Below, in pieces: positions 2,335-63,246 of a stretch of DNA of 64,000 nt. Each line of letters begins with the position of its first letter. The stretch's first letter is position 1. The stretch is from Thermodesulfobacteriota bacterium (GTDB lineage: Bacteria > Desulfobacterota > Binatia > UBA9968 > JAJDTQ01). Made by a program: the position numbers and the translations under genes. The DNA lies in the NCBI GenBank assembly GCA_965116635.1, contig OZ220710.1, positions 325,638 through 389,637 on the forward strand. Direction: 5' to 3'. The notes under the pieces were generated by a model that saw nothing but the letters and a program-made list of their open reading frames with translations, searched no databases and was not told where the DNA came from.

Positions 2335-2351
<17 letters not shown>
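543..2351 (+). CDS. nucleobase:cation symporter-2 (xanthine/uracil permease) family transporter with a soluble C-terminal extension of about 150 aa
   Basis: 602-aa ORF with many hydrophobic segments and NCS2-like stretches (GSSGAFIAV, NTAYTTAVSVAELTGVA). The hydrophilic tail starts near FEDFTFRNGWGKT. The true start may be ATG 561. The 3' end overlaps the PKS start by 17 nt. Confidence 0.75.
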
Positions 2352-12609
<10,258 letters not shown>

Positions 12610-12989: not shown

Positions 12990-13886
12990 GTGTGGGAGGT
13001 ACCCGAGCCGCTTTCCACCCGTGACGTCCGCGTGGACGATGACACGGTCATCGTCCTGCGGCGTCACGGCAATCCGGCGGGCCCGCGACTGGTCCTGAGC
13101 CACGGCAACGGGGTCGCCATCGACCTCTACTACCCTTTCTGGTCGCTGCTGGCCGATGACTTCGACCTGGTCGTCTATGACCTCCGGAACCACGGCTGGA
13201 ATGCTGTCGGCAAGTCGCAGAGTCACAACGTTGCGAGATTCGTCAGTGACCACGACCGGATTCTCCGGGCCATCGACCACCACTACGGAAACAAGCCCAA
13301 GATCGGGGTCTTCCATTCCGTCGCCGCCTTGGCCACGCTCTTGTCGGCCAACCTGGGCAGCGAGTTCGCGGCTCGCGTTCTGTTCGATCCGCCCGTGTGC
13401 AAGCGCGGGCTGAACTACGAGGAATTCGATGCCGCCGCCGACCGCGTGGCGGGCATGACCCGCCACCGCACACCCCGGTTTGAGAGCGAGCAACAGTTTG
13501 CCGAGATCCTGCCCTATCTGCCGGTATATCAACGGGCCGTTCCCGGCGTGTTCGATCTCGTCGCGCGGACGACCCTCCGCGAGTCCGCCGACGGGAACGG
13601 CTACGAGCTCCGGTGTCCGCGTGACTACGAAGCGCAGATCATCCAATACGCCGCGCCGTTTGCGATGATGGTGGAACTCGACAAGGTCCGTTGTCCGACC
13701 AAGGTCATCGGCGCGGATCCCACTCTGCCGTTTTCCTACCTGCCGACGCTGGACCTGAGTCATATCCTGACCGTGGACTACGATTTCGTGCCCGAAACGA
13801 CGCATTTTCTGCAGCTCGAAGAACCGGAGAGTTGCGTCGAGATCATGCGTGACTTCCTGGACCGGCATGGCCTCTTGAGTTCCTGA
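12990..13886 (+). CDS. alpha/beta-fold hydrolase (candidate thioesterase / chain-release enzyme)
   Basis: 298 aa with GTG start. HGNG oxyanion-hole motif (LVLSHGNGV), nucleophile elbow GVFHSVAA, C-terminal [12 protein letters not shown] (catalytic His region). Confidence 0.8.
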
Positions 13887-13908
13887 CGATTGGCCTGCAT
13901 ATTTCACG

Positions 13909-14507
<599 letters not shown>

Positions 14508-14511
<4 letters not shown>

Positions 14512-15617
14512 CCGAACCGCGCGGGCGAGAAGTTCGGGTCCGCGCCGGCTCCGAAGAGGAGCCGGGCGGCCAGGGAGCCTACGGCGGCGCTGGTGGTGAC
14601 GCCGTGGCCGCCGAGCCCGGCGACCCAGAAGAACCCCTCGATGCCGGGGTCCCAGCCGATGACGAACCGGTTGTCGTCGGTGAAGGTGCGAAGCCCGGCC
14701 CAGTAGCGCCCGATGGGAACGTCGGGGAAGTCGGGGTAGGCCGCCGCCAGCCGCTCGGCCAGAAGCTCCAGCGCTTCGGCCCGCGTCGGCGGGTCGCAGG
14801 GCGGCATGTCGTCCTCGTCGCACGGGCACAGCATCAGCCCGCCGGAGCTCGGCTGGAAGTAGACCTCGTCGGAGACGTTGAGGACGAAGGGCCAGTCGGG
14901 CTTGACCCAGTCCAGGGGCGGGGTCACGAACAGGTGCCGGCGGCGTGGATGAAAGGCGATGGGCGCGGCTCCGGCCATGGCGCCCACCGGCCCGGCCCAG
15001 GGTCCGGCGGCGTTGACGACCACGTCGGCCTCGAAGAAGCCCTGGCTCGTGGCGATGCCCTGGACACGCCCGTTGCGTACCCGCACTTCCTCCACCGCCG
15101 CGCCGTAACGAATGGTCGTGCCGCCGCTCTGGGCCATCTTGAGATAGCCCGCCAGGAGCGCGTTGATGTCGATGACGCCGTCTGACGCGCACCATACGGC
15201 ACCGTCGAGGACGGCGCCCTCGATGAGCGGCATGGCCGCCAGGGTCTTTTCCGGCGACCAGCACTCCACCTCGAGGCCCCGCCGGCGGGCCAACTCCGCG
15301 TCTGTTTGCAGGGCGTCCCACTGGTCGCCGCGTCCCAGTATCATGCAGCCGATGGCGTCGTAGGAGACCGGTATCGGCCACCCGGGCGGCGGGTTGCGGA
15401 TGAACTCGGCTGATTGCGCGGCCAGATCCGCCACCGAGGGCTCGGCCAGGACCTGCCGTATGAACCCGGCGTTCCGGCCCGAGGAATGGAACCCGGCCAC
15501 CGCCTCCTGCTCCACGATGACGATTTGGCGGGCGCCCTGGAGGGCCAGATGACAGGCGGTGGCGGCGCCGGCGAACCCGGCGCCGATGATGACGTATCGC
15601 GCCTCCTCGGGTCCCAT
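14508..15617 (-). CDS. FAD-dependent oxidoreductase (DAO family, sarcosine/glycine-oxidase-like)
   Basis: Start taken at [21 protein letters not shown] (GxGxxG dinucleotide fold); 369 aa. Its stop shares the palindrome CTAG with the convergent clpP stop. Confidence 0.85.
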
Positions 15618-16665: not shown

Positions 16666-17745
16666 CTACGGGTTGGGCGGCAGCTTGAAGCCGCGCACCA
16701 CCTGTCCCGACCCTCCGACGGCGGGAAGCTCCTCCCCGTCCAGCGTGAGGCGCACCCCGCCGGCGTTGCCGAAGGTGATGACGAAACCGGATTGCGCGGA
16801 CAGTGTCCGGCTTGTGCCGGCGGCCAGGAGCATGTCCTGTGGGCGTGCGTCGTCGACCCAGACCCGCAGCCAGGCCTCTGCGTCGGCGGTGATGGTCAGG
16901 CTGTGTTTCGCCGGAGTACCGGCAACGGCGGTTTCCGGCGGGGCCGTTGCGGCGGCCACCGCGGCGGTTCCAGACGGATTCGCTCCGTCGGCTTCATCCC
17001 CGCCGCGGGTGGCAGTCCCCGTGACGGGTTCCTCGGTCGGTGACGCGGGGGTCTCCTGGGCGGTTGGCGCCGCGGTTGATCCGTCCGCCGTCTCCGTGGC
17101 GGGAACCCGGGGTGATTCTTCCACGGTCGTCACGGGTGCGGGTGCCGCCTCGGGCCGCGGGGCGGGCGGGATGGCCACCAGCCTCGGTTTCGAGGGATCC
17201 GTTTCGTTGGCTTCGGGTTGCAGGACGGAGTTCCCCCCTTCGTCCGCCCTTGGCGCCGCCGCGGGAATCGGCGATGGTTCTGGTGCAGGTGATTCCGACG
17301 GCGTCGAGGGAGGAGTGGACTTCACGACGACTCGCGTTAGCGGTGCACCGACGATGCCGACGAGAGCGGGGTCATAGACATAGACGCCGCCCGCCATCAG
17401 CAGCAGAACGGCCAGCGTGGCCACGGCGATGGATTTCCAGGAGCGGCGCTTGGGGACGGGGACAATGTTCTGGGGCTCCGGTCGCCGGTTCTCGCGAACG
17501 AACTGGGCCGCCAGCGTTTCTTCCTCGACCTCCAGGAAGGCCGCGTAGCTGCGGAGAAAGTGCACCATGTAGAGACGGTCCGAAACCAGGCGGTCGTCTC
17601 CCCCTCCCTCCAGGATCTCGAGGTAGTAGGCGGGAATGCGCGTCGCTTCCTCCACCTGCCGCAGGGTGAGCCCCTTTTGCTGCCGCGCTTCTCGAATATA
17701 GTCGGCGGTCCCGCCCACCGATCTTGGAGTAACCTCATCCTGCAT
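16666..17745 (-). CDS. RodZ-like protein (N-terminal HTH, one TM segment, Pro/Ala/Thr-rich linker, C-terminal DUF4115-like domain)
   Basis: N-terminus [32 protein letters not shown] segment [20 protein letters not shown]-terminus [17 protein letters not shown]...[18 protein letters not shown]. Confidence 0.7.
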
Positions 17746-44924: not shown

Positions 44925-44947
44925 AGGGGCGACCGCCGGTCGCCCCT
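44925..44947. repeat. small GC-rich palindrome AGGGGCGACC-GCC-GGTCGCCCCT
   Basis: 10-bp perfect stem in the intergenic gap. A related copy (GGGCGACC-TGC-GGTCGCCC) lies at 58965-58983 inside MITE copy B. Confidence 0.8.
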
Positions 44948-52949: not shown

Positions 52950-55403
52950 ATGGCGGAGCCACAAACCGCACCACAAGCGCTTGATGGCGTGAGGGTCCTG
53001 GAGCTGGCGGGTCCCGAGGGCGAGTACTGCGGCAAGCTCTTGGCCGACTTCGGCGCCGAGGTGATCAAGGTCGAGCCGCCCGGGGGCAGCCCTTCCCGCG
53101 GCGAGCCTCCGTTCAAGGACGACCGGCCGGGGTCCGAAAACAGCCTTTCCTTCCTCTACTTCAACGCCAACAAGAAGAGCATCATCGCGGACCTCGATAC
53201 CGATGCCGGCCGGGAGCGCGTCCGGGGCCTGGCCCGGACCGTGGACGTGGTGCTGGAGAGTTCCGCGCCCGGGTCCCTCGCGGACATGGGGCTGGGGCAC
53301 GGGGATTTGCTCGCCGCCAACCCGCGCCTGGTCTACGCGTCCGTTACGGCGTTCGGCCAGACCGGGCCCTACAGCCAATACCGCTGGTCCGGGCTGGTGG
53401 CCTTCGCCATGGGCGGGCTCATGTATGTCAGCGGCAAGCCGTCGTTGCCGCCGGTGAACGCGCCCGGCGCGCAGGCGTTCCTGGTGGGCTCGGCCCACGC
53501 CGCCCTGGCCATATTGATGGCGTTGTGGCACGTGCGGCAGGGCGGCGCGGGACAGCACGTCGACGTGTCGATGATGGACTGCCTGGCGGCCATGGAGAAC
53601 ATGGTCTCGCGTTCCGCTTCCACGGGGGTCCACCCGCGGCGGGACGGCACCCAGCACCGCTTCGCCACCCCCGGCACCATCTACCGCTGCCGCGACGGCT
53701 TCGTGCACATCTTCGTGACCAACTCCCAGCCCGGGGCGTGGGAGCGGTTCGTGGACTGGCTGGGGCGGCCGGCGGCGCTGACGGGCGACGAGTTCGCGGA
53801 CCCGGTCTATCGCCGTGCCCACGTGGCGGAGGTGGACCGGGTCGTGTCCGGGGTCCTGGCGGAGTTGCCCAAGGAAAAGGTTTACGAGGAGTTGCAGGAC
53901 TGCCACATTCCCTGCGCCCCGGTGAACACGCCGCTCGAGTTCGTGCGCGACCGCCACATCGAGTCCCGGGGTCTGGTCGTGGATACTGTCCACCCGCGAC
54001 TCGGTCCCATGGAATTTCCGGCCCGGCCCTACAAGACCGATAGCTGTAGGTTCCGGCACCACGCTCCCTCTCTGGGGGAGCACGACCGGGAACTGCTCGA
54101 TGGCGGGGATCCGCCGCCGGTTCATTCGCGTCGCGCCCATCGGCGGCCGGCGCGGGACGACCACGCGGACCGGGCGTCAGCCCCCGGGGTTTCCGTGGGA
54201 AACGGCGCGCTGCCCCTGGAAGGTATCCGCGTGGCCGACTTCACCCACATGGTCGCCGGCCCCTACGGAACCATGCAGCTCGCGTACTTTGGCGCCGAGG
54301 TGATCAAGATCGAGTCCCGGGCAAGGCCCGACACCTGGCGCATCCGCGAGGGCAACAAGGACGTGGAAGCGTCGCTGCCGTTTGCCGACCACAACCGGAA
54401 CAAGCTTTCGATCACCGCCAATCTCAAGTCCGAAGAGGGCAGGGAGGTGGCGCGGCGCATCATCGCCGAGAGCGACGTGGTGGTGGAAAACTTCAGCGTC
54501 GGAGTCATGGATCGTCTTGGCCTGGGCTACGAGGAGCTCAAGGCGCTGAAGCCCGACATCATCATGATCCGGCTTCAGGGGCTCGGCACCACCGGCCCCC
54601 GGAAGAACTACGTGACCTGGGGCCCCAGCCTGATGCCGTTTTCCGGCATGACCTGGCTCTGGAACCACCCGGACGGCGGCGCGCCCGTGGGGTCGCAGAC
54701 CTCTTATCCCGACTACATCGTTTCCATTCACATGGCCTTCGTGCTGATGGCGGCGCTGCATCACAAGGCCAACACGGGCGAGGGGCAGTTCATCGACATC
54801 GCCCAGGGCGAAGTCACGGCATCGCTCATCGGGCCGGCGCTGCTGGACGGCCTGGTCAACGGACGCGCGGCGAAGCCCGTGGGGAACCGCGGCCACGCCG
54901 GCGCTCCCCACGGCTGTTACCCTTGCCGGGGCGACGACGCGTGGTGTGCCGTCTCGGTGGGGGATGACGAGGAATGGCGCCGTTTTTGCGCCGCCACCGG
55001 CCATCGGGCGGCGTTCGGGGACGAGCGGTTCGCCAGCGCCGACCGGAGGCTGGCCAACGCCGCCGCCCTGGATGAACTGGTATCGGAGTGGACCCGGGAG
55101 CGGAGTCCGCGCGAGGTCATGGAGGCGCTCCAGGCGAGTGGCGTGACCGCGGGGATGGTGTCCGACGGCACCACCCTCGTCACCGACCCGCACTTGCGGA
55201 GCCGCCGCTCCGTGGTCGAGCACGGGCACCCGCGCCAGGGCCGGCTCACGCTGCCCGGCATCGTGACGAAGCTGTCCGGGACACCGGGAGAGATCCGCCG
55301 CCACGCCCCGTTGCTGGGGCAGGATACCCACGCGGTTCTCAGCGGATTGCTCGGGCTGACCGAAGACGAGATTCGCGGCCTGGAGGCCGCCGGGGCGTTT
55401 TGA
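52950..55403 (+). CDS. tandem fusion of two family III CoA-transferase units (A-like plus B-like), 817 aa
   Basis: The N-terminal half parallels the 37280 product (VRVLELAGPEGEYCGKLLADFGAEVIKVEPP). The C-terminal half parallels the 38476 product (PFSGMTWLWNHPDGGAPVGSQTSYPDY; APHGCYPCRGDDAWCAVSVGDDEEWRRF). An Arg/Pro/His-rich linker of about 45 aa lies around nt 54100-54230. Confidence 0.88.
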   Translation: MAEPQTAPQALDGVRVLELAGPEGEYCGKLLADFGAEVIKVEPPGGSPSRGEPPFKDDRPGSENSLSFLYFNANKKSIIADLDTDAGRERVRGLARTVDVVLESSAPGSLADMGLGHGDLLAANPRLVYASVTAFGQTGPYSQYRWSGLVAFAMGGLMYVSGKPSLPPVNAPGAQAFLVGSAHAALAILMALWHVRQGGAGQHVDVSMMDCLAAMENMVSRSASTGVHPRRDGTQHRFATPGTIYRCRDGFVHIFVTNSQPGAWERFVDWLGRPAALTGDEFADPVYRRAHVAEVDRVVSGVLAELPKEKVYEELQDCHIPCAPVNTPLEFVRDRHIESRGLVVDTVHPRLGPMEFPARPYKTDSCRFRHHAPSLGEHDRELLDGGDPPPVHSRRAHRRPARDDHADRASAPGVSVGNGALPLEGIRVADFTHMVAGPYGTMQLAYFGAEVIKIESRARPDTWRIREGNKDVEASLPFADHNRNKLSITANLKSEEGREVARRIIAESDVVVENFSVGVMDRLGLGYEELKALKPDIIMIRLQGLGTTGPRKNYVTWGPSLMPFSGMTWLWNHPDGGAPVGSQTSYPDYIVSIHMAFVLMAALHHKANTGEGQFIDIAQGEVTASLIGPALLDGLVNGRAAKPVGNRGHAGAPHGCYPCRGDDAWCAVSVGDDEEWRRFCAATGHRAAFGDERFASADRRLANAAALDELVSEWTRERSPREVMEALQASGVTAGMVSDGTTLVTDPHLRSRRSVVEHGHPRQGRLTLPGIVTKLSGTPGEIRRHAPLLGQDTHAVLSGLLGLTEDEIRGLEAAGAF

Positions 55404-55474
55404 GCACGGTCAGCAGGGAATGACCCAGGCGCCCGGGAATGACTGATTCAACGCGGAGAGGAGCAAGCAACGAC

Positions 55475-56260
55475 ATGGACTATCAAGCCATCCTGTTCGA
55501 GAAAAAGAACGGCATCGCCTACGTGACCCTGAACCGTCCGGAAGTGCTGAACGCGCGCAACCGGCGCATGCGCGAGGAACTCATCGAAGCAGTCACGGTC
55601 ATCCGGGCGGACCCGGAGGTGCGCGTGGTGATCATCACGGGCGCGGGGGAGCGGTCGTTCTCGGCCGGCCGTGACCTCAAGGAAGCGGCCCAGGAAAAGG
55701 TCGGCGTGGTGGCGGCCCGGCAGGCGAAGATGGAAATCAGCGACACCGAGATGATCGCCCGGCTCAACAAGCCGGTGATCGCGGCCATCAACGGGTTCGC
55801 CCTGGGCGGCGGCTGCGAGCTGGCGCTGGCCTGCGACATCCGGGTGGCGGTGGAAGGGGCCAAGGTGGGACTCCCGGAAGTCTCCCGCGGCATGATCCCC
55901 GGCAGCGGCGGCACCCAGCGCCTGTCGCGGGTGGTGGGGCTCGGCAAGGCGCTGGAGCTGATCCTCACGGGCAGCGTGATCGACGCGGAGGAAGCCTGCC
56001 GCATCGGTCTGGTGAACAAGGTTGTTCCCCGCGATGGGCTCATGGCCGCGGCCGAGGAGTACGCCACGGCCATTGCCACCAAGGCGCCGGTGGCCGTCGT
56101 CTTCGCCAAGGAGGCGGTGCGCGAGGGCTACGAGATGTCGCTGGACGACGGCTTGCGCCTGGAGACCGACCTCTCGGCGCTCCTGAGGACCACCTCGGAC
56201 GTCAAGGAAGGTGCGCGGGCCTTCGTGGAGAAACGTGCACCCCAGTGGCGCGGAGAGTGA
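55475..56260 (+). CDS. enoyl-CoA hydratase/isomerase (crotonase family)
   Basis: Start at MDYQAILFEKKNGIAYVTLNRPEVLNA. ITGAGERSFSAGRDL, INGFALGGGCELALACD. Confidence 0.9.
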   Translation: MDYQAILFEKKNGIAYVTLNRPEVLNARNRRMREELIEAVTVIRADPEVRVVIITGAGERSFSAGRDLKEAAQEKVGVVAARQAKMEISDTEMIARLNKPVIAAINGFALGGGCELALACDIRVAVEGAKVGLPEVSRGMIPGSGGTQRLSRVVGLGKALELILTGSVIDAEEACRIGLVNKVVPRDGLMAAAEEYATAIATKAPVAVVFAKEAVREGYEMSLDDGLRLETDLSALLRTTSDVKEGARAFVEKRAPQWRGE

Positions 56261-56402
56261 CCCCGGCTTCGGCTGGTCGTCCTCGGTGTCGCATGGGTTG
56301 TACGGCCGAGACGAGACTCAGCCGACGTTTGTGATTCGATAGTCGGGCGCCTTGTTGGCCGTGCGTCCCCACTACTCACTTCGAGCACTTACCCCGTTGC
56401 AT

Positions 56403-56565
56403 TAGTGTGGTGTCTGGTTAATTCGCGTCATAATCTGCGGGTCTTTTTCGCCGTCGGCTGCGTTGCTCTTCCTCGCGTGGTGCCCGCCACTGCTCGTCAT
56501 CGCGCCTTGCCGACGACAAAAAATCCTCCGCATATTATGACGCGAATTAACCAGACACCACACTA
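56403..56565 (+). mobile_element. MITE-like element, copy A (163 bp, 38-bp terminal inverted repeats)
   Basis: TAGTGTGGTGTCTGGTTAATTCGCGTCATAATCTGCGG at 56403-56440, with its reverse complement at 56528-56565 (one mismatch). No coding capacity. Confidence 0.7.
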
Positions 56566-56652
56566 GCTGGTGCTTTGGCCTTTCTGGCTTCGGCAGTTTG
56601 CCGGTGTCTTGAGTTCTGTACCTGGTTATCACGGCGCGCAGGAGGATGTCCT

Positions 56653-58872
56653 TTGGGTCCGGCTTCGGAGAATACCATAGAGCGGCGTTTGGCTGACCAC
56701 ATCGTGCGGCACAGATGCTTGTGGTTCATGGCGGTAGTAGTGACGGTGGGGTTGTTGGGTGTTGGGGTGTCAATGTTGAACGTCAAATCCGATTACAGGG
56801 ACTTCGTGGACCCGAAAGACCCGTACCGGCAGGCGCTGGAGATGATGGCCGAGAGGTATTCCGAGGTGGGTGATGTGGCGGTCGTCCTGCTCCGGCCGCG
56901 GAGTGAGGACATATTTCAACCAAGGGTTCTTGCCGCCACCGGTTGGGTGACTGAGGAAATCGCCAAGCTGGCATACGTCACACGGGTCCAGTCAGTAACA
57001 CAATTACTCAGGAGTCGACGTGCCGAGGACACGGCAAGCGTGGTTTCCACTTCGAGCGCGGCGGCAAGCCTACGAGCCGGTGACTTGAGTGGTTTCCTGG
57101 TTTCGCGCACTGGCGACGCGCTGGCCGTAGTGGCGTACGTGGATCTTGCCGCTTCCAGCGATCGGACGGCGGCGGCGAGGACAGTGGCGAGGGACTTGCG
57201 CAAGTTAAGACGGCTGGCGGAAGACCGGTACGACATGTCTGTCTATCTGCTCGGTTCGGTGATGTTCGATCAAGCGATGGTGGACGCCGTTGCTCTGGAC
57301 TCCAAGTGGCTGGTGCCGGGGATTTTCGCACTATTCTTCGTACTTGTAGGAATGGCGTTCCGTTCCGCGGGAGTGCCGGCGGCCGTAACAGCATGTCTGG
57401 TGTTGACCGTCGTTGGAGCCTTTGGGAGTGCAGGGTGGTTGGGGGTGGATATCAATGTCTTCTCGTTTTCGGCGATTTTCGTGATGGTGACCATAGCCAT
57501 CGCCGACAGCGTCCACTTGGTGGCTAACTACGTAATCACGTTACGGGACCGTGAGCCTGCGGATGCAATGCGATGTAGTTTGGAACTGAATCTGCGCCCG
57601 ATCTTCCTTACGTCCATTACCACGGTGGCGGGCCTTCTTGGCCTCTGTTTTAGTCCTTCGCCGCCAGTGCGGGCGCTAGGAGCGGTGACGGCACTCGGTG
57701 TTCTGGTGGCGATGATCGTCACGGTGGGGTTGGTGCCGATGCTTGTGATGGCGGCGCGGCCGAGGGCCATGTTGTCCATCACGTGGTTGAACGCTGCGTT
57801 CAGTCAACTGGCTGCGGTGGTGGTACGGCGTCGCGTGTTTTTCGGCAGTGTGACAGTGGGCCTCTGCGTGGTTGCCACGGTGCCCATTTACCGAAACGTT
57901 CTTGATGACAATTCCCTGGAGTGGTTTTCGGACAGGTTGGAGTTCGGTCGGGCTATTGAGTTTGCAGACGGCCGCATCGCGGGCCTGCGGTCGGTGACCT
58001 ACTCGGTGGATTGCGGGGAAGCGAATGGCGTGTTCACCAGGGGATGTGGAGACGAGACGAATCGCTTCGCAGAGTGGTTGCTTGCACAGCCGGAGACGAT
58101 TCACGTCCGCTCCTTTCGGAACTGTCCTGGTCTGACGTATGGTGCAATGAAGTCAGGCGAGGGTACGAGCGCGAGCGCAGGAGGGGCACTCCGGAGGACT
58201 GGTAGAGCCTGCGACCTCATCGACCCGATGGCTCGCCATTCGAAAGTTGTGGTCGAACTTGGAAAGGTGAGTAACGAAGAACTGCTATCTTTCGAAGAGA
58301 AGACCAGAGGCTGGTTGGGCCGGAACTCCTTCGCTTACGACGTTCAGTCGGCCAGTGTCCCGCTCATGTTCGCTCGACTTAGTCAGGAGAACCTCCGGGG
58401 AATGGTATACGGCGGCATTCTTGCCGTATTTCTGATCACGGTTGTAGTGGGTGTGGGCCTATGGTCGTGGAGGTATGCGTTGGTGAGCCTGGTGCCGAAC
58501 ATACTTCCGATGTTGGCCGTCTACGGTTGCTGGGGCTTCCTCGTTGCGGAAGTGAACATCGGAGTCGCTGCGATGTTTAGTACCGCGTTGGGTGTAGTCG
58601 TGGACGACACGATCCACATAATGACGAAATTTCGTGCAGCATTGCGGAGTGGATGCGACACGGAACAGGGCATACAATATGCCCTGAAGACGGCCGGACC
58701 GGCCGTCTTTTTTACCACGTTGTGCCTTTGTGTAGGGTTTTTCATCCTTGGTCTATCGGCGTTTCAGTTGTCCGCGGTTCTGGGCGTGTTGGTAGGGTCC
58801 ACACTCCTCGCGGCCTTGGGGCTGGATATATTTGTGCTTCTGCCGTTACTAACGTGGCGACGTTTGCGGTAG
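56653..58872 (+). CDS. MMPL/RND-superfamily transporter, second copy (739 aa from TTG 56653)
   Basis: AGGAGGA RBS 6-7 nt before the in-frame TTG. Same two-block architecture as the 30676-32961 product (SDYRDFVDPKDP; GVVVDDTIHIMTKF). Visibly lower GC than its neighbours. Confidence 0.85.
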   Translation: MGPASENTIERRLADHIVRHRCLWFMAVVVTVGLLGVGVSMLNVKSDYRDFVDPKDPYRQALEMMAERYSEVGDVAVVLLRPRSEDIFQPRVLAATGWVTEEIAKLAYVTRVQSVTQLLRSRRAEDTASVVSTSSAAASLRAGDLSGFLVSRTGDALAVVAYVDLAASSDRTAAARTVARDLRKLRRLAEDRYDMSVYLLGSVMFDQAMVDAVALDSKWLVPGIFALFFVLVGMAFRSAGVPAAVTACLVLTVVGAFGSAGWLGVDINVFSFSAIFVMVTIAIADSVHLVANYVITLRDREPADAMRCSLELNLRPIFLTSITTVAGLLGLCFSPSPPVRALGAVTALGVLVAMIVTVGLVPMLVMAARPRAMLSITWLNAAFSQLAAVVVRRRVFFGSVTVGLCVVATVPIYRNVLDDNSLEWFSDRLEFGRAIEFADGRIAGLRSVTYSVDCGEANGVFTRGCGDETNRFAEWLLAQPETIHVRSFRNCPGLTYGAMKSGEGTSASAGGALRRTGRACDLIDPMARHSKVVVELGKVSNEELLSFEEKTRGWLGRNSFAYDVQSASVPLMFARLSQENLRGMVYGGILAVFLITVVVGVGLWSWRYALVSLVPNILPMLAVYGCWGFLVAEVNIGVAAMFSTALGVVVDDTIHIMTKFRAALRSGCDTEQGIQYALKTAGPAVFFTTLCLCVGFFILGLSAFQLSAVLGVLVGSTLLAALGLDIFVLLPLLTWRRLR

Positions 58873-58889
58873 GAAACTCTGATGCCGCC

Positions 58890-59113
58890 AGTGTGGTGTC
58901 TGGTTAATTCGCATCATAATCTGCGGAGGATTTTTTGTCGTCGGCAAGGCGCGATGACTTGTAGGGGCGACCTGCGGTCGCCCTTCAGTGGCGGGCACCA
59001 CGCGAGGAAGAGCAACGCAGCCGCCCTTCGACTTCGCTTCGCAGCTACGCTCAGGATGCGCGTAGCGAAAAAGACCCGCAGATTATGACGCGAATTAACC
59101 AGACACCACCCTA
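58890..59113 (-). mobile_element. MITE-like element, copy B (inverted relative to A, with two nested insertions)
   Basis: Same TIRs (58890-58926 and 59077-59113) and the same core in reverse complement. Also carries a GC palindrome (58965-58983) and a REP-like arm (about 59023-59064). Confidence 0.7.
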
Positions 59114-59125
59114 GGGAGGCAAGTC

Positions 59126-59632
59126 ATGAATCAAACCGTTGGTGAGAAGTTTCCGGATCTGGCGCTCAAGGACCAGACCGGCCAGGAGGCGGCATTGTCG
59201 GGGATCACCGAGGGCAAGTTCCCCCTCATCGTGGTGTTCTATCGCGGCTACTGGTGAGGGAAGTGCGTGGTGCAGTTGCGCCACCTGGTCACCCTGCAGG
59301 AGGAGCTTCCCTCGGCCTATTGCCGTGTCGCGGTCGTCAGCGTCGACCCGCCGCAAGTCAACGGGGCGCTTAGAAACGGCCTCGGGGCGACGTTCCCGTT
59401 CCTGAGCGACCATGAGCACAAGGCCATCGAGGCCCTGGACCTGGTCGACACCTCTGACAAAAAGCACGGGACCATCGCGATTCCATACGCCTTCTCGCTG
59501 CTGCCCGATCTCACGGTCCACCGCATCTACAACGGCTGGTACTACGTGGGCCGGCCCACCAACGAAGAGTTGCGGGCCGATATGCGGGCGATGATCCAGC
59601 AGTGCCGGGGAGACTACGATACGCAGGCGTGA
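59126..59632 (+). CDS. peroxiredoxin/redoxin-like (AhpC/TSA fold) protein, candidate selenoprotein (in-frame TGA at 59255-59257 read as Sec)
   Basis: GGGAGG RBS, then ATG 59126. Reads MNQTVGEKFPDLALKDQTGQEAALSGITEGKFPLIVVFYRGYW-TGA-GKCVVQLRHLVTLQEEL..., in frame with track ORF 59267..59632. The FYRGxWCxxCxxQL motif of this family places the TGA on the first Cys of CxxC. Confidence 0.7.
59267..59284 (+). promoter_or_regulatory. SECIS-like hairpin downstream of the peroxiredoxin-like in-frame UGA
   Basis: UGA-N9-GUGGUGC-AGUU-GCGCCAC: a 7-bp stem (one G-U pair) with a 4-nt loop containing GU, starting about 17 nt after the UGA. Confidence 0.5.
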
Positions 59633-59704
59633 GCACCGGGTGATGCCGGGTCGTTGCCCCTCATCCGGTGGTCCGCCTCCGGGTTTTGTGCTAGTTCCAG
59701 CCGT

Positions 59705-63236: not shown

Positions 63237-63246
63237 GATGGTCTCC

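Follow-up and report, generated by a model that had tools for sequence, protein, structure and literature searches.

The two inverted MITE copies (A and B) that bracket an MMPL transporter gene in the 64-kb stretch of DNA analysed here (i.e. the window) are most probably separate insertions on either side of a gene that was already present, a reading to which we assign a probability of about 0.85. This reading is preferred because the MMPL gene and its neighbouring enoyl-CoA hydratase gene occur together in relatives with an empty A site, some of which also lack B.

Structure of the repeats

The features of the region are as follows, in window coordinates.

56403-56565, plus strand: MITE copy A, 163-bp canonical form with 38-nt arms that are 97% complementary
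56653-58872, plus strand: RND-superfamily (MMPL/HAE3-like) transporter gene, intact, 739 aa
58889-59113, minus strand (inverted as compared to A): MITE copy B, 225 bp; arms of 37 nt, 95% complementary
56404-56440 (plus), 56528-56564 (minus), 58890-58926 (plus) and 59076-59112 (minus): repeat ends in the window
about 58959-58985, no strand given: B-specific insertion 1, holding the GC-rich palindrome/hairpin GGGGCGACCTGCGGTCGCCC (58964-58983)
59024-59064, no strand given: B-specific insertion 2, 41 nt in place of 3 nt
59115-59640, plus strand: start of a block collinear with L118, L121 and L122, holding a peroxiredoxin-like gene

A repeat search and an alignment confirmed the original prediction that A and B are inverted MITE copies with shared 38-bp terminal inverted repeats, the 38 bp of copy A being counted with the flanking TA. 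The 37-nt repeat end was found at four sites in the 64-kb window with 0-1 mismatch each, as compared to a chance expectation of 0. The outer repeats of the pair (i.e. 56403-56440 and 59076-59113) were intact, with 0 and 1 mismatch, respectively. Both copies are short, non-coding, multi-copy elements, and the ORFs overlapping them in a mechanical ORF list were only 50-84-aa stretches running through the repeats. An Rfam search of 56000-59700 produced no match at E <= 1. Folding of copy A as RNA gave a single long hairpin (-92.4 kcal/mol, z = -12.9).

The two copies had been predicted to contain the same core. This was correct in that B is the reverse complement of A; B is, however, a longer subtype with two insertions of its own and not a plain copy. 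Alignment of the copies placed A and B in different MITE subtypes. The palindrome GGGGCGACCTGCGGTCGCCC is the defining mark of the 184-210-bp subfamilies, and the interior of B is of this hairpin-bearing type, whilst the 41-nt insertion was absent from 54/54 other aligned copies. The left repeat of B is a rare variant, ATGATGCG, common only to the B copy of L103, and the right repeat is canonical. Elsewhere in the window, at 44926-44946, the GGGGCGACCTGCGGTCGCCC palindrome also occurs on its own.

A flanking TA was anticipated at the element ends and was present at both ends of A and at the outer end of B, whereas the left edge of B abuts CA (i.e. gccgc-CA-GTGTGG). An outward promoter facing the MMPL gene had also been proposed for A and was not supported: the motif concerned (i.e. 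TTGCCG-N18-CATATT) matches 8/12 consensus positions, which is at chance level, and was not called by a promoter scan. One promoter-like site was detected in the whole region (minus strand, inside B) versus 0.9 expected. Terminator-like matches within the repeats consisted of one weak motif, four times over.

A MITE family with an IS630-family relative

The repeat search suggested with the original prediction yielded both a copy number and a full-length IS. An invariant 20-mer of the repeat was present in at least 100 blocks of 8 kb. At least 11 genomes are represented, most of them labelled Candidatus Binatia, and one 3.97-Mb chromosome supplied at least 23 of the repeat-bearing blocks. Complete copies numbered 53, with lengths of 163, 184, about 209 and 225 bp; many truncated copies were also present, the elements being often partly deleted. 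Nested GC hairpins appear to have created the length subtypes. The family also appears to be associated with truncations, an integrase island and a synteny break. No tRNA attachment site was found near this island, in L102, nor anywhere in the window. Short-read contigs of relatives frequently terminate at MITE copies. In the literature library that was searched, Binatia and MITEs did not occur together in any paper, and this IS630-derived family of Candidatus Binatia is apparently undescribed.

Target preference was examined for the bases beside 165 element ends, with C at -3 in 156/165, T at -2 in 150/165 and A at -1 in 159/165. Filled sites (i.e. C-TA-[MITE]-TA-G) could be set against empty sites (i.e. 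CTAG) for A and for the B copy of L103. The element would insert at the TA of 5'-CTAG-3' with duplication of the TA, a 2-bp TA duplication being not strictly separable from a 4-bp CTAG duplication. Presence or absence of copies varied among strains that are 94-98% identical (i.e. copy A, and an extra copy in L118 at window position ~63241-63246), which shows recent mobility, by whatever enzyme.

An autonomous element was found by pairing short, loosely matched ends lying 0.4-6 kb apart.

L046 3578-4735 and L071 2610-3767: IS630-family element, 1158 bp, 360-aa product

The 360-aa product scored 260 bits on NF033545 (IS630-family transposase, cutoff 100) and matched DDE_3. At its right end, the element has the same sequence as the MITE repeat over the first 23 nt (23/23), and the left end matches at 18/23 with differences at five positions. 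This element resides in a different Binatia genome from that of the window, and no IS630-family transposase was found within the 64-kb window. It is likely to be the autonomous partner of the MITE family. The C/TA/G ends and the 23 matching nucleotides agree with the predicted IS630/Tc1-mariner type, to which A and B are assigned from these comparisons. We infer that the element is a high-copy, non-autonomous MITE that relies for its movement on an IS630-family transposase acting in trans.

A full-length IS was also considered beside 'solo' repeats in L005, L020, L048 and L090, but the adjoining ORFs contained nothing transposase-like; these repeats are truncated MITEs or copies cut by the edges of the 8-kb blocks. 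A Tn3-derived or IS5-type origin, suggested by the repeat length of 38 bp and by the possibility that four bases, CTAG, are duplicated, was rejected because the matching autonomous element belongs to the IS630 family and because the G...C beside the TA is constant where the outer flank deviates from C...G.

The MMPL locus in related genomes

Between A and B there is one credible gene, in agreement with the prediction of a sole intact MMPL gene with its own RBS. It has a TTG start codon with AGGAGG 7 nt upstream, and the start codon lies 88 bp from copy A, which is upstream at a CTAG site. The product matched Pfam MMPL (PF03176) with 5.3e-14 and 52.4 bits (gathering cutoff 20.5), in two stretches that fit the two-fold repeat of RND proteins. 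NCBIfam subfamily cutoffs were not reached for the HAE3, HpnN and MMPL models (scores/cutoffs: TIGR00921, 85/352; TIGR03480, 78/752; TIGR00833, 53/875). The lower GC content noted beforehand was upheld by a composition check, with a GC of 0.58 and GC3 of 0.67 as compared to a window mean GC of 0.664 and a GC3 of about 0.76-0.92 for neighbouring clearly real genes.

The MMPL protein had one close cluster, at 99% identity, and the next homologue was 31% identical. Exact-sequence look-ups for the window's MMPL product and its amidohydrolase returned no record. The low GC and the lack of close homologues suggest that the gene is an older horizontal acquisition. Because dN/dS among four strains was 0.12-0.31, with dS up to 0.058, the gene is read as resident and functional, under purifying selection.

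The same MMPL gene was present directly downstream of the same enoyl-CoA hydratase gene in six related contigs, all of them without A. This adjacency was kept in 7/7 contexts, and no genomic context other than the hydratase-adjacent locus was found for the MMPL gene. In L101, L102, L103, L104 and L106, the A site is a clean, empty CTAG (i.e. ttgcaCTAGc...) with no footprint, as compared to ...ttgcaT-TA-[A]-TA-Gctggtg in the window; L114 lacks A according to blastn coordinates. From these sites, A reads as a recent insertion at CTAG.

B was present and A absent in both L102 and L103, the B of L103 being a canonical 163-bp copy and the other being truncated. The original prediction that the MITE pair captured the MMPL gene is contradicted by L101, L104, L106 and L114, in which the gene occupies this locus and neither flank has a MITE; this is the finding that had been named beforehand as refuting capture. 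In L101 the gene is full-length, 98.6% identical and of the same composition, whilst L104, L106 and L114 have an internal deletion in the gene. Three JGI contigs are without the stretch 57121-57748 (window coordinates) of the MMPL gene.

The empty B site is gccgcCAGgtgcggg in L101 and gctggCGGgtgcggg in L104 and L114, and the filled site of L103 is gccgc-TA-[163-bp MITE]-TA-Ggtgccgg. On the left of the B site, L101 and the window both have CA in place of TA. This shared CA would also fit an excision of B in L101 or an exchange of alleles, and the order of events at B is less settled. Among more distant relatives, a search with the hydratase gene gave one informative short contig (i.e. L105, 81% amino acid identity) that has neither the MMPL nor the TPP enzyme gene downstream of the hydratase gene, too little to date the arrival of the MMPL gene.

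Synteny at copy B

Collinearity with L101-L104 extends up to the left of B, and from 59113/59115 rightwards the window is collinear with L118, L121 and L122. In these three contigs, the peroxiredoxin-like gene is immediately preceded by PEP mutase-MR_MLE. The DNA to the right of B has no homology to that downstream of MMPL in L101, L103, L104 and L106, where a TPP enzyme gene is located. B was expected to end at the RBS of a selenoprotein-candidate gene, and its last position, 59113, does lie directly before the GGGAGG-N6-ATG of the peroxiredoxin-like gene. The latter, a probable selenoprotein gene, has its ATG at 59126 and an in-frame TGA at 59255-59257.

The left end of B coincides in position with that of the canonical B in L103 and of the B in L102. 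The location of B at a synteny break and its chimeric look suggest a MITE-mediated rearrangement. Neither the partner MITE nor the reciprocal junction of the proposed recombination was found.

Origin of the bracketed gene

The MMPL gene would have been located beside the enoyl-CoA hydratase gene before either insertion. B would have inserted first, in an ancestor common to L102 and L103, and A later, solely in the lineage of the window. The pair did not bring the MMPL gene, and its likeness to a composite transposon would be accidental, as the element is common and intergenic CTAG sites are its preferred targets; bracketing of a gene by chance is to be expected as the element is abundant and its target short and common. 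The duplications at A and B are uninformative on two single insertions versus one composite insertion because TA is palindromic and invariant in the MITE family. It is somewhat favoured that B, once in an MMPL-B-TPP enzyme order, recombined with a hairpin-bearing MITE just upstream of the peroxiredoxin-like gene. The product would be the chimeric 225-bp B, and the two blocks joined by it are neighbours in none of the relatives seen.

The architecture of the region (i.e. inverted copies, intact outer repeats and one compositionally odd gene between them) is what would be seen if the low-GC MMPL gene had been moved into the locus within a composite transposon ending in A and B, with the transposase acting in trans. 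Tn3-type MITE-bounded composites do mobilise genes (PMC13367494), and IS630-associated composite transposons are known, with the TA of CTAG as target, according to Tenzen and Ohtsubo 1991 as cited in PMC2170065. Such an origin is nevertheless extremely improbable, as the MMPL gene is in place without A in six relatives, four of which are also without B, and as A and B belong to different MITE subtypes; moreover, no second context was found for the gene, and the one protein cluster close to its product belongs to this locus. The empty sites could themselves be secondary if both MITEs were ancestral and had been precisely excised in the relatives. The CCAG at the B site of L101 equals a window-like C-CA-[B]-TA-G from which the element and one TA have been removed, and truncated copies indicate that MITEs are often partly deleted. 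The five printed A sites, however, are clean CTAG sequences with no footprint, and L114 is without A by blastn coordinates; the flanks are 2-6% diverged. A single gain is a far more parsimonious history than exact loss several times over. Excision is thus regarded as distinctly unlikely and, even if it were true for B, the pair would still not have carried the MMPL gene in.

An assembly misjoin at the repeat could produce the MMPL-B-peroxiredoxin junction: B is located exactly at the synteny break, the MITE occurs in many copies per genome and the short-read contigs of relatives often end at MITEs. Against this, the unique 41-nt insertion and the subtype-specific interior are joined seamlessly to both flanks of B. 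A 739-aa member of the MMPL cluster, taken as the window's own product, is on a 5.1-Mb contig, which suggests long reads that would easily span 225 bp, and a misjoin is considered very improbable. A further, unlikely reading is that the insertion of A has just created, in the strain of the window alone, a transposition-competent IS630-type composite (i.e. A-MMPL-B) with intact outer ends, unmoved so far, and that MITEs are actively reshuffling Binatia gene neighbourhoods. If true, a composite transposon would have been caught at birth in an uncultured lineage, and a rearrangement at B would have placed a MITE end directly beside the RBS of the probable selenoprotein gene. Under the preferred reading of two separate insertions, the region would be ordinary transposon litter and not a gene-carrying transposon, and provides a worked example of why comparative data are needed before a gene between two MITEs is called cargo. 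The description of the MITE family is useful for annotation and assembly of Binatia genomes and leaves the view of such elements unchanged.

Comparison with known systems

Correia elements of Neisseria, RUP of Streptococcus pneumoniae and Nezha of cyanobacteria are non-coding, 100-250 bp long, bounded by terminal inverted repeats and associated with a TA duplication. Intergenic copies number from tens to hundreds and lie near gene starts; the elements occur as length subtypes and form long hairpins when transcribed. The Binatia MITE shares these features of size, terminal repeats, TA, copy number, hairpin and subtypes, but is not known to be related to them in sequence and has Candidatus Binatia as its host lineage. 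Rearrangement by homologous recombination between IS or MITE repeats is resembled by B in its position at a breakpoint and in having a left end of one subtype with an interior and right end of another; it differs in that the event at B is reconstructed, the partner copy and reciprocal product not having been found.

The likeness to the IS630 family lies in a DDE_3/IS630 transposase gene within an element of roughly 1.16 kb, one end of which matches the MITE repeat. In contrast, the 87-nt MITE core is unrelated to the interior of this IS, and the exact match is of 23 nt at one IS end. Insertion at the TA of 5'-CTAG-3' with TA duplication is as described for IS630 of Shigella sonnei and ISY100 of Synechocystis (Tenzen et al. 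1990, 1991, as cited in PMC2170065). ISY100 requires only its terminal repeats in cis (PMC2170065), so that short non-coding derivatives would be mobilisable; its repeats are of 24 bp as compared to 38 bp in the MITE described here.

TIME-COMPs, integron mobilization units and IS630-associated composites are alike in having two inverted copies with intact outer ends and a cargo gene between them (PMC13367494). Composites of these kinds occur at several locations, with direct repeats flanking the entire unit, whereas the 'cargo' of A-MMPL-B occurs at the same locus without MITEs, and for this reason the A-MMPL-B architecture is proposed to have arisen in place.

Two inverted MITE copies flank a single MMPL gene

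The 37-nt repeat end was found at four positions in the window and at no others, each with 0–1 mismatch, and zero chance matches were obtained in 100 shuffles. Together with comparison of the two copies that these ends delimit (i.e. A and B), this bore out the predicted inverted MITE pair with shared ends. The sole credible gene between the copies was, as also predicted, an MMPL transporter ORF preceded by a ribosome-binding site.

Features of the locus (window coordinates)
56403–56565: MITE copy A, 163 bp
56653–58872: MMPL gene, start TTG, AGGAGG 7 nt upstream
58889–59113: MITE copy B, 225 bp, A in reverse-complement form with two insertions added
~58959–58985 and 59024–59064: insertions specific to B as compared to A

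The left end of B adjoins CA, not TA. The outward promoter proposed for A (TTGCCG-N18-CATATT) matched 8/12 consensus positions and was not called by a promoter scan, which returned one promoter-like site for the region versus 0.9 expected. As RNA, both copies were predicted to form one long hairpin (-92 kcal/mol, z = -12.9 for A; -124 kcal/mol, z = -10.0 for B), and no Rfam family matched either copy.

The copies belong to an IS630-type family of Binatia

A 20-mer invariant in all four repeat ends was searched against 8-kb blocks of a species-representative genome collection. The repeat proved multi-copy, with matches in at least 100 blocks representing at least 11 genomes; nearly all carry the label Candidatus Binatia or earlier designations of this kind of MAG, and one 3.97-Mb chromosome supplied at least 23 of the blocks. 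The matched blocks listed, plus the window, contained 53 complete copies, and 'solo' repeat ends were truncated copies or copies cut at block edges. No paper linking Binatia with MITEs was found in the literature searched.

Size classes of complete MITE copies
163 bp: 32 copies, canonical form
164 bp: 4 copies, near-canonical
184 bp: 8 copies, canonical plus a 21-nt GC-rich palindrome
208–210 bp: 4 copies, canonical plus two palindromes
225 bp: 1 copy, only B of the window
166, 183, 185 and 187 bp: remaining 4 copies

The GC-rich palindrome (GGGGCGACC-N3-GGTCGCCCC), which looks like a REP-like element family, is free-standing at window 44926–44946 and recurs at 58964–58983, occupying a fixed nested position within the 184–225-bp subtypes. 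Palindrome-bearing copies were present in L001, L009, L016, L023, L027, L029, L049, L091 and L098 (L-numbers denote contigs or 8-kb blocks of related, mostly Binatia, genomes).

The bases outside GTGTGG... at 165 element ends were C (156/165), T (150/165) and A (159/165), indicating that each element sits as C-TA-[GTGTGG...CCACAC]-TA-G. This site matches the known IS630 target, a TA inside 5'-CTAG-3' that insertion duplicates (Tenzen et al. 1990; Tenzen and Ohtsubo 1991; as cited in PMC2170065). A search for a partner IS, in which loosely matched ends were paired at 0.4–6 kb spacing, returned a full-length IS630-family element of 1158 bp on a Binatia chromosome (L046 3578–4735) and a second copy of it (L071 2610–3767). 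At its right end, this element carries the first 23 nt of the MITE repeat without a mismatch; at its left end, 18 of those 23 positions agree. Against the NCBIfam IS630-family transposase model (cutoff 100), the 360-aa product reached 260 bits, and it also matches Pfam DDE_3 and helix-turn-helix domains. Another IS630-family element, in L074, is 48% identical and likewise begins TA-GTGT. The MITE core is unrelated to the interior of the 1158-bp element, and no IS630-family transposase is encoded within the window. The CTAG target and an IS630-family element with a matching end support well the original guess of an IS630/Tc1-mariner-type MITE. Judged by matching IS end, TA/CTAG target, small non-coding size and high copy number, A and B are members of an IS630-derived MITE family, putatively mobilised in trans. 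In L071 2610–3929, the full-length element adjoins a 164-bp MITE (3766–3929) with the flanking TA common to both; the insertions are nested or in tandem, the later element having entered the TA that the earlier one generated.

MMPL is a resident gene

The window was compared with the six other genomic contexts recovered for MMPL.

MMPL locus in seven contexts (A site; MMPL; B site; downstream)
Window: MITE A, 163 bp; intact; MITE B, 225 bp; peroxiredoxin-like gene
L101: empty (ttgcaCTAGctggtg); intact; empty (gccgcCAGgtgcggg); TPP-dependent enzyme gene
L104: empty; lacks 57121–57748; empty (gctggCGGgtgcggg); TPP-enzyme block
L106: empty; lacks 57121–57748, plus a second gap; empty; TPP-enzyme block
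L114: empty (blastn coordinates); lacks 57121–57748; empty (gctggCGGgtgcggg); TPP-enzyme block
L103: empty (CTAG); intact; canonical 163-bp MITE (gccgc-TA-[MITE]-TA-Ggtgccgg); same TPP enzyme gene
L102: empty (CTAG); intact; canonical-type MITE without right repeat; island

In all seven contexts MMPL immediately follows the same enoyl-CoA hydratase gene, indicating that MMPL is resident at this locus. Copy A was found in the window only (1/7), indicating a recent single insertion, and the presence of B without A in L102 and L103 points to B as an older, independent insertion. The original prediction had the MITE pair capturing MMPL, and would have been undone by relatives carrying the gene at this locus without MITEs; such relatives exist and, with B present without A in two contexts, this composite-capture model was rejected. 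A more distant hydratase context (L105) lies on a contig too short to date the arrival of MMPL.

The product exceeds the Pfam MMPL gathering score and reaches the cutoff of none of the named NCBIfam RND subfamilies. The low GC originally noted was confirmed (0.58 versus a window mean of 0.664; GC3 0.67 versus ~0.76–0.92 in clearly real neighbours). A search of 5.8 billion sequences found one close cluster of 20 members at 99% identity, the next homologue being just 31% identical. That MMPL is low in GC and has no other close homologues suggests that it may have been acquired horizontally at an older date. Four full-length alleles (dS 0.02–0.06, dN/dS 0.12–0.31) fit a functional gene that would already have occupied this locus before the strains diverged.

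The 628-bp deletion (window 57121–57748) was observed in three JGI metagenome contigs, with junctions at L104 2281–2290, L106 2572–2581 and L114 893–902 (i.e. window 57120–57749), where two blastn pieces overlap by ~10 bp; the gene is thus being lost in part of the population. The island of L102 (12366–21811) replaces the right repeat of MITE B and begins with two tyrosine integrase genes (Arm-DNA-bind_3 plus Phage_integrase domains), after which come DUF4365/TPR and HTH/Peptidase_M78 genes. A tRNA gene was not found near the island.

Copy B lies at a synteny breakpoint

Left of B, the window runs collinear with L101–L104. To the right this collinearity is lost, the TPP-enzyme block being absent, and from 59113/59115, 1–2 bases from the end of B, collinearity is with L118, L121 and L122. 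In these three, PEP-mutase and MR_MLE genes precede the same peroxiredoxin-like, BolA and amidohydrolase genes, with no MITE. The left repeat of B carries a variant (ATGATGCG) common only to B of L103 among 55 copies aligned, the interior is of the palindrome-bearing subtype with a unique 41-nt insertion, and the right repeat is without this variant, which L103 B carries at both ends. Window B and L103 B are thus not one and the same.

The simplest reading, with a probability of about 0.55, is that MITE–MITE recombination produced this junction: B would have inserted into the MMPL–TPP arrangement, another MITE, belonging to the other subtype, would have inserted just 5' of the peroxiredoxin gene, and the two would then have recombined to leave a chimeric B. 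Neither the partner copy nor the reciprocal junction was found. An assembly misjoin joining MMPL, B and the peroxiredoxin gene is very unlikely, the unique interior of B speaking against it. L101 and the window share CA instead of TA left of the B site, possibly because B was excised in L101 or alleles were exchanged. When window 53733–58895 was compared with L101, L103 and L104, identity between L101 and the window jumped from 94.3% upstream to 98.6% in MMPL, and that between L104 and L101 changed from 100% upstream to 95.8% downstream; these abrupt changes make strain-level recombination evident and indicate frequent homologous exchange.

In L118, a MITE-like insertion (16825–17018) occupies a site empty in the window (~63241–63246), extra genes (NYN, PhdYeFM/PIN toxin-antitoxin; 10361–12595 and 13531–14970) separate blocks adjacent in the window, and the MR_MLE–peroxiredoxin spacer, as in L122, is filled with similar small palindromes. 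The AhpC/TSA-like peroxiredoxin gene (window 59126–59632) contains an in-frame TGA at 59255–59257 (YRGYW-TGA-GKC). Its orthologues (L118 8203–8709, L121 2748–3254, L122 3966–4472; ~92% identity) were split by gene callers into 43-aa and 121-aa products in all three relatives, so the TGA is conserved, fitting a putative selenocysteine rather than a fresh nonsense mutation. An Rfam scan of 56000–59700 gave no SECIS match at E <= 1. An ORF/GC survey also registered a single 3425-aa ORF at window 2335–12609 (+), GC 0.73.

Comparison with known systems

The observation and the element family of the original prediction (i.e. an IS630-type MITE) stand, and its capture history and promoter do not. It is quite unlikely that a composite able to move has just arisen through insertion of A, with MITEs actively rearranging gene neighbourhoods in this lineage. 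In size, target and capacity to form hairpins, the Binatia MITE is similar to Correia, RUP and Nezha elements. In architecture, A–MMPL–B is the same as TIME-COMPs, an example of composites bounded by MITEs (PMC13367494), and as the IS630 composite transposons that Tenzen and Ohtsubo investigated; on the test that defines a composite, A–MMPL–B did not behave as a unit moving as a whole.
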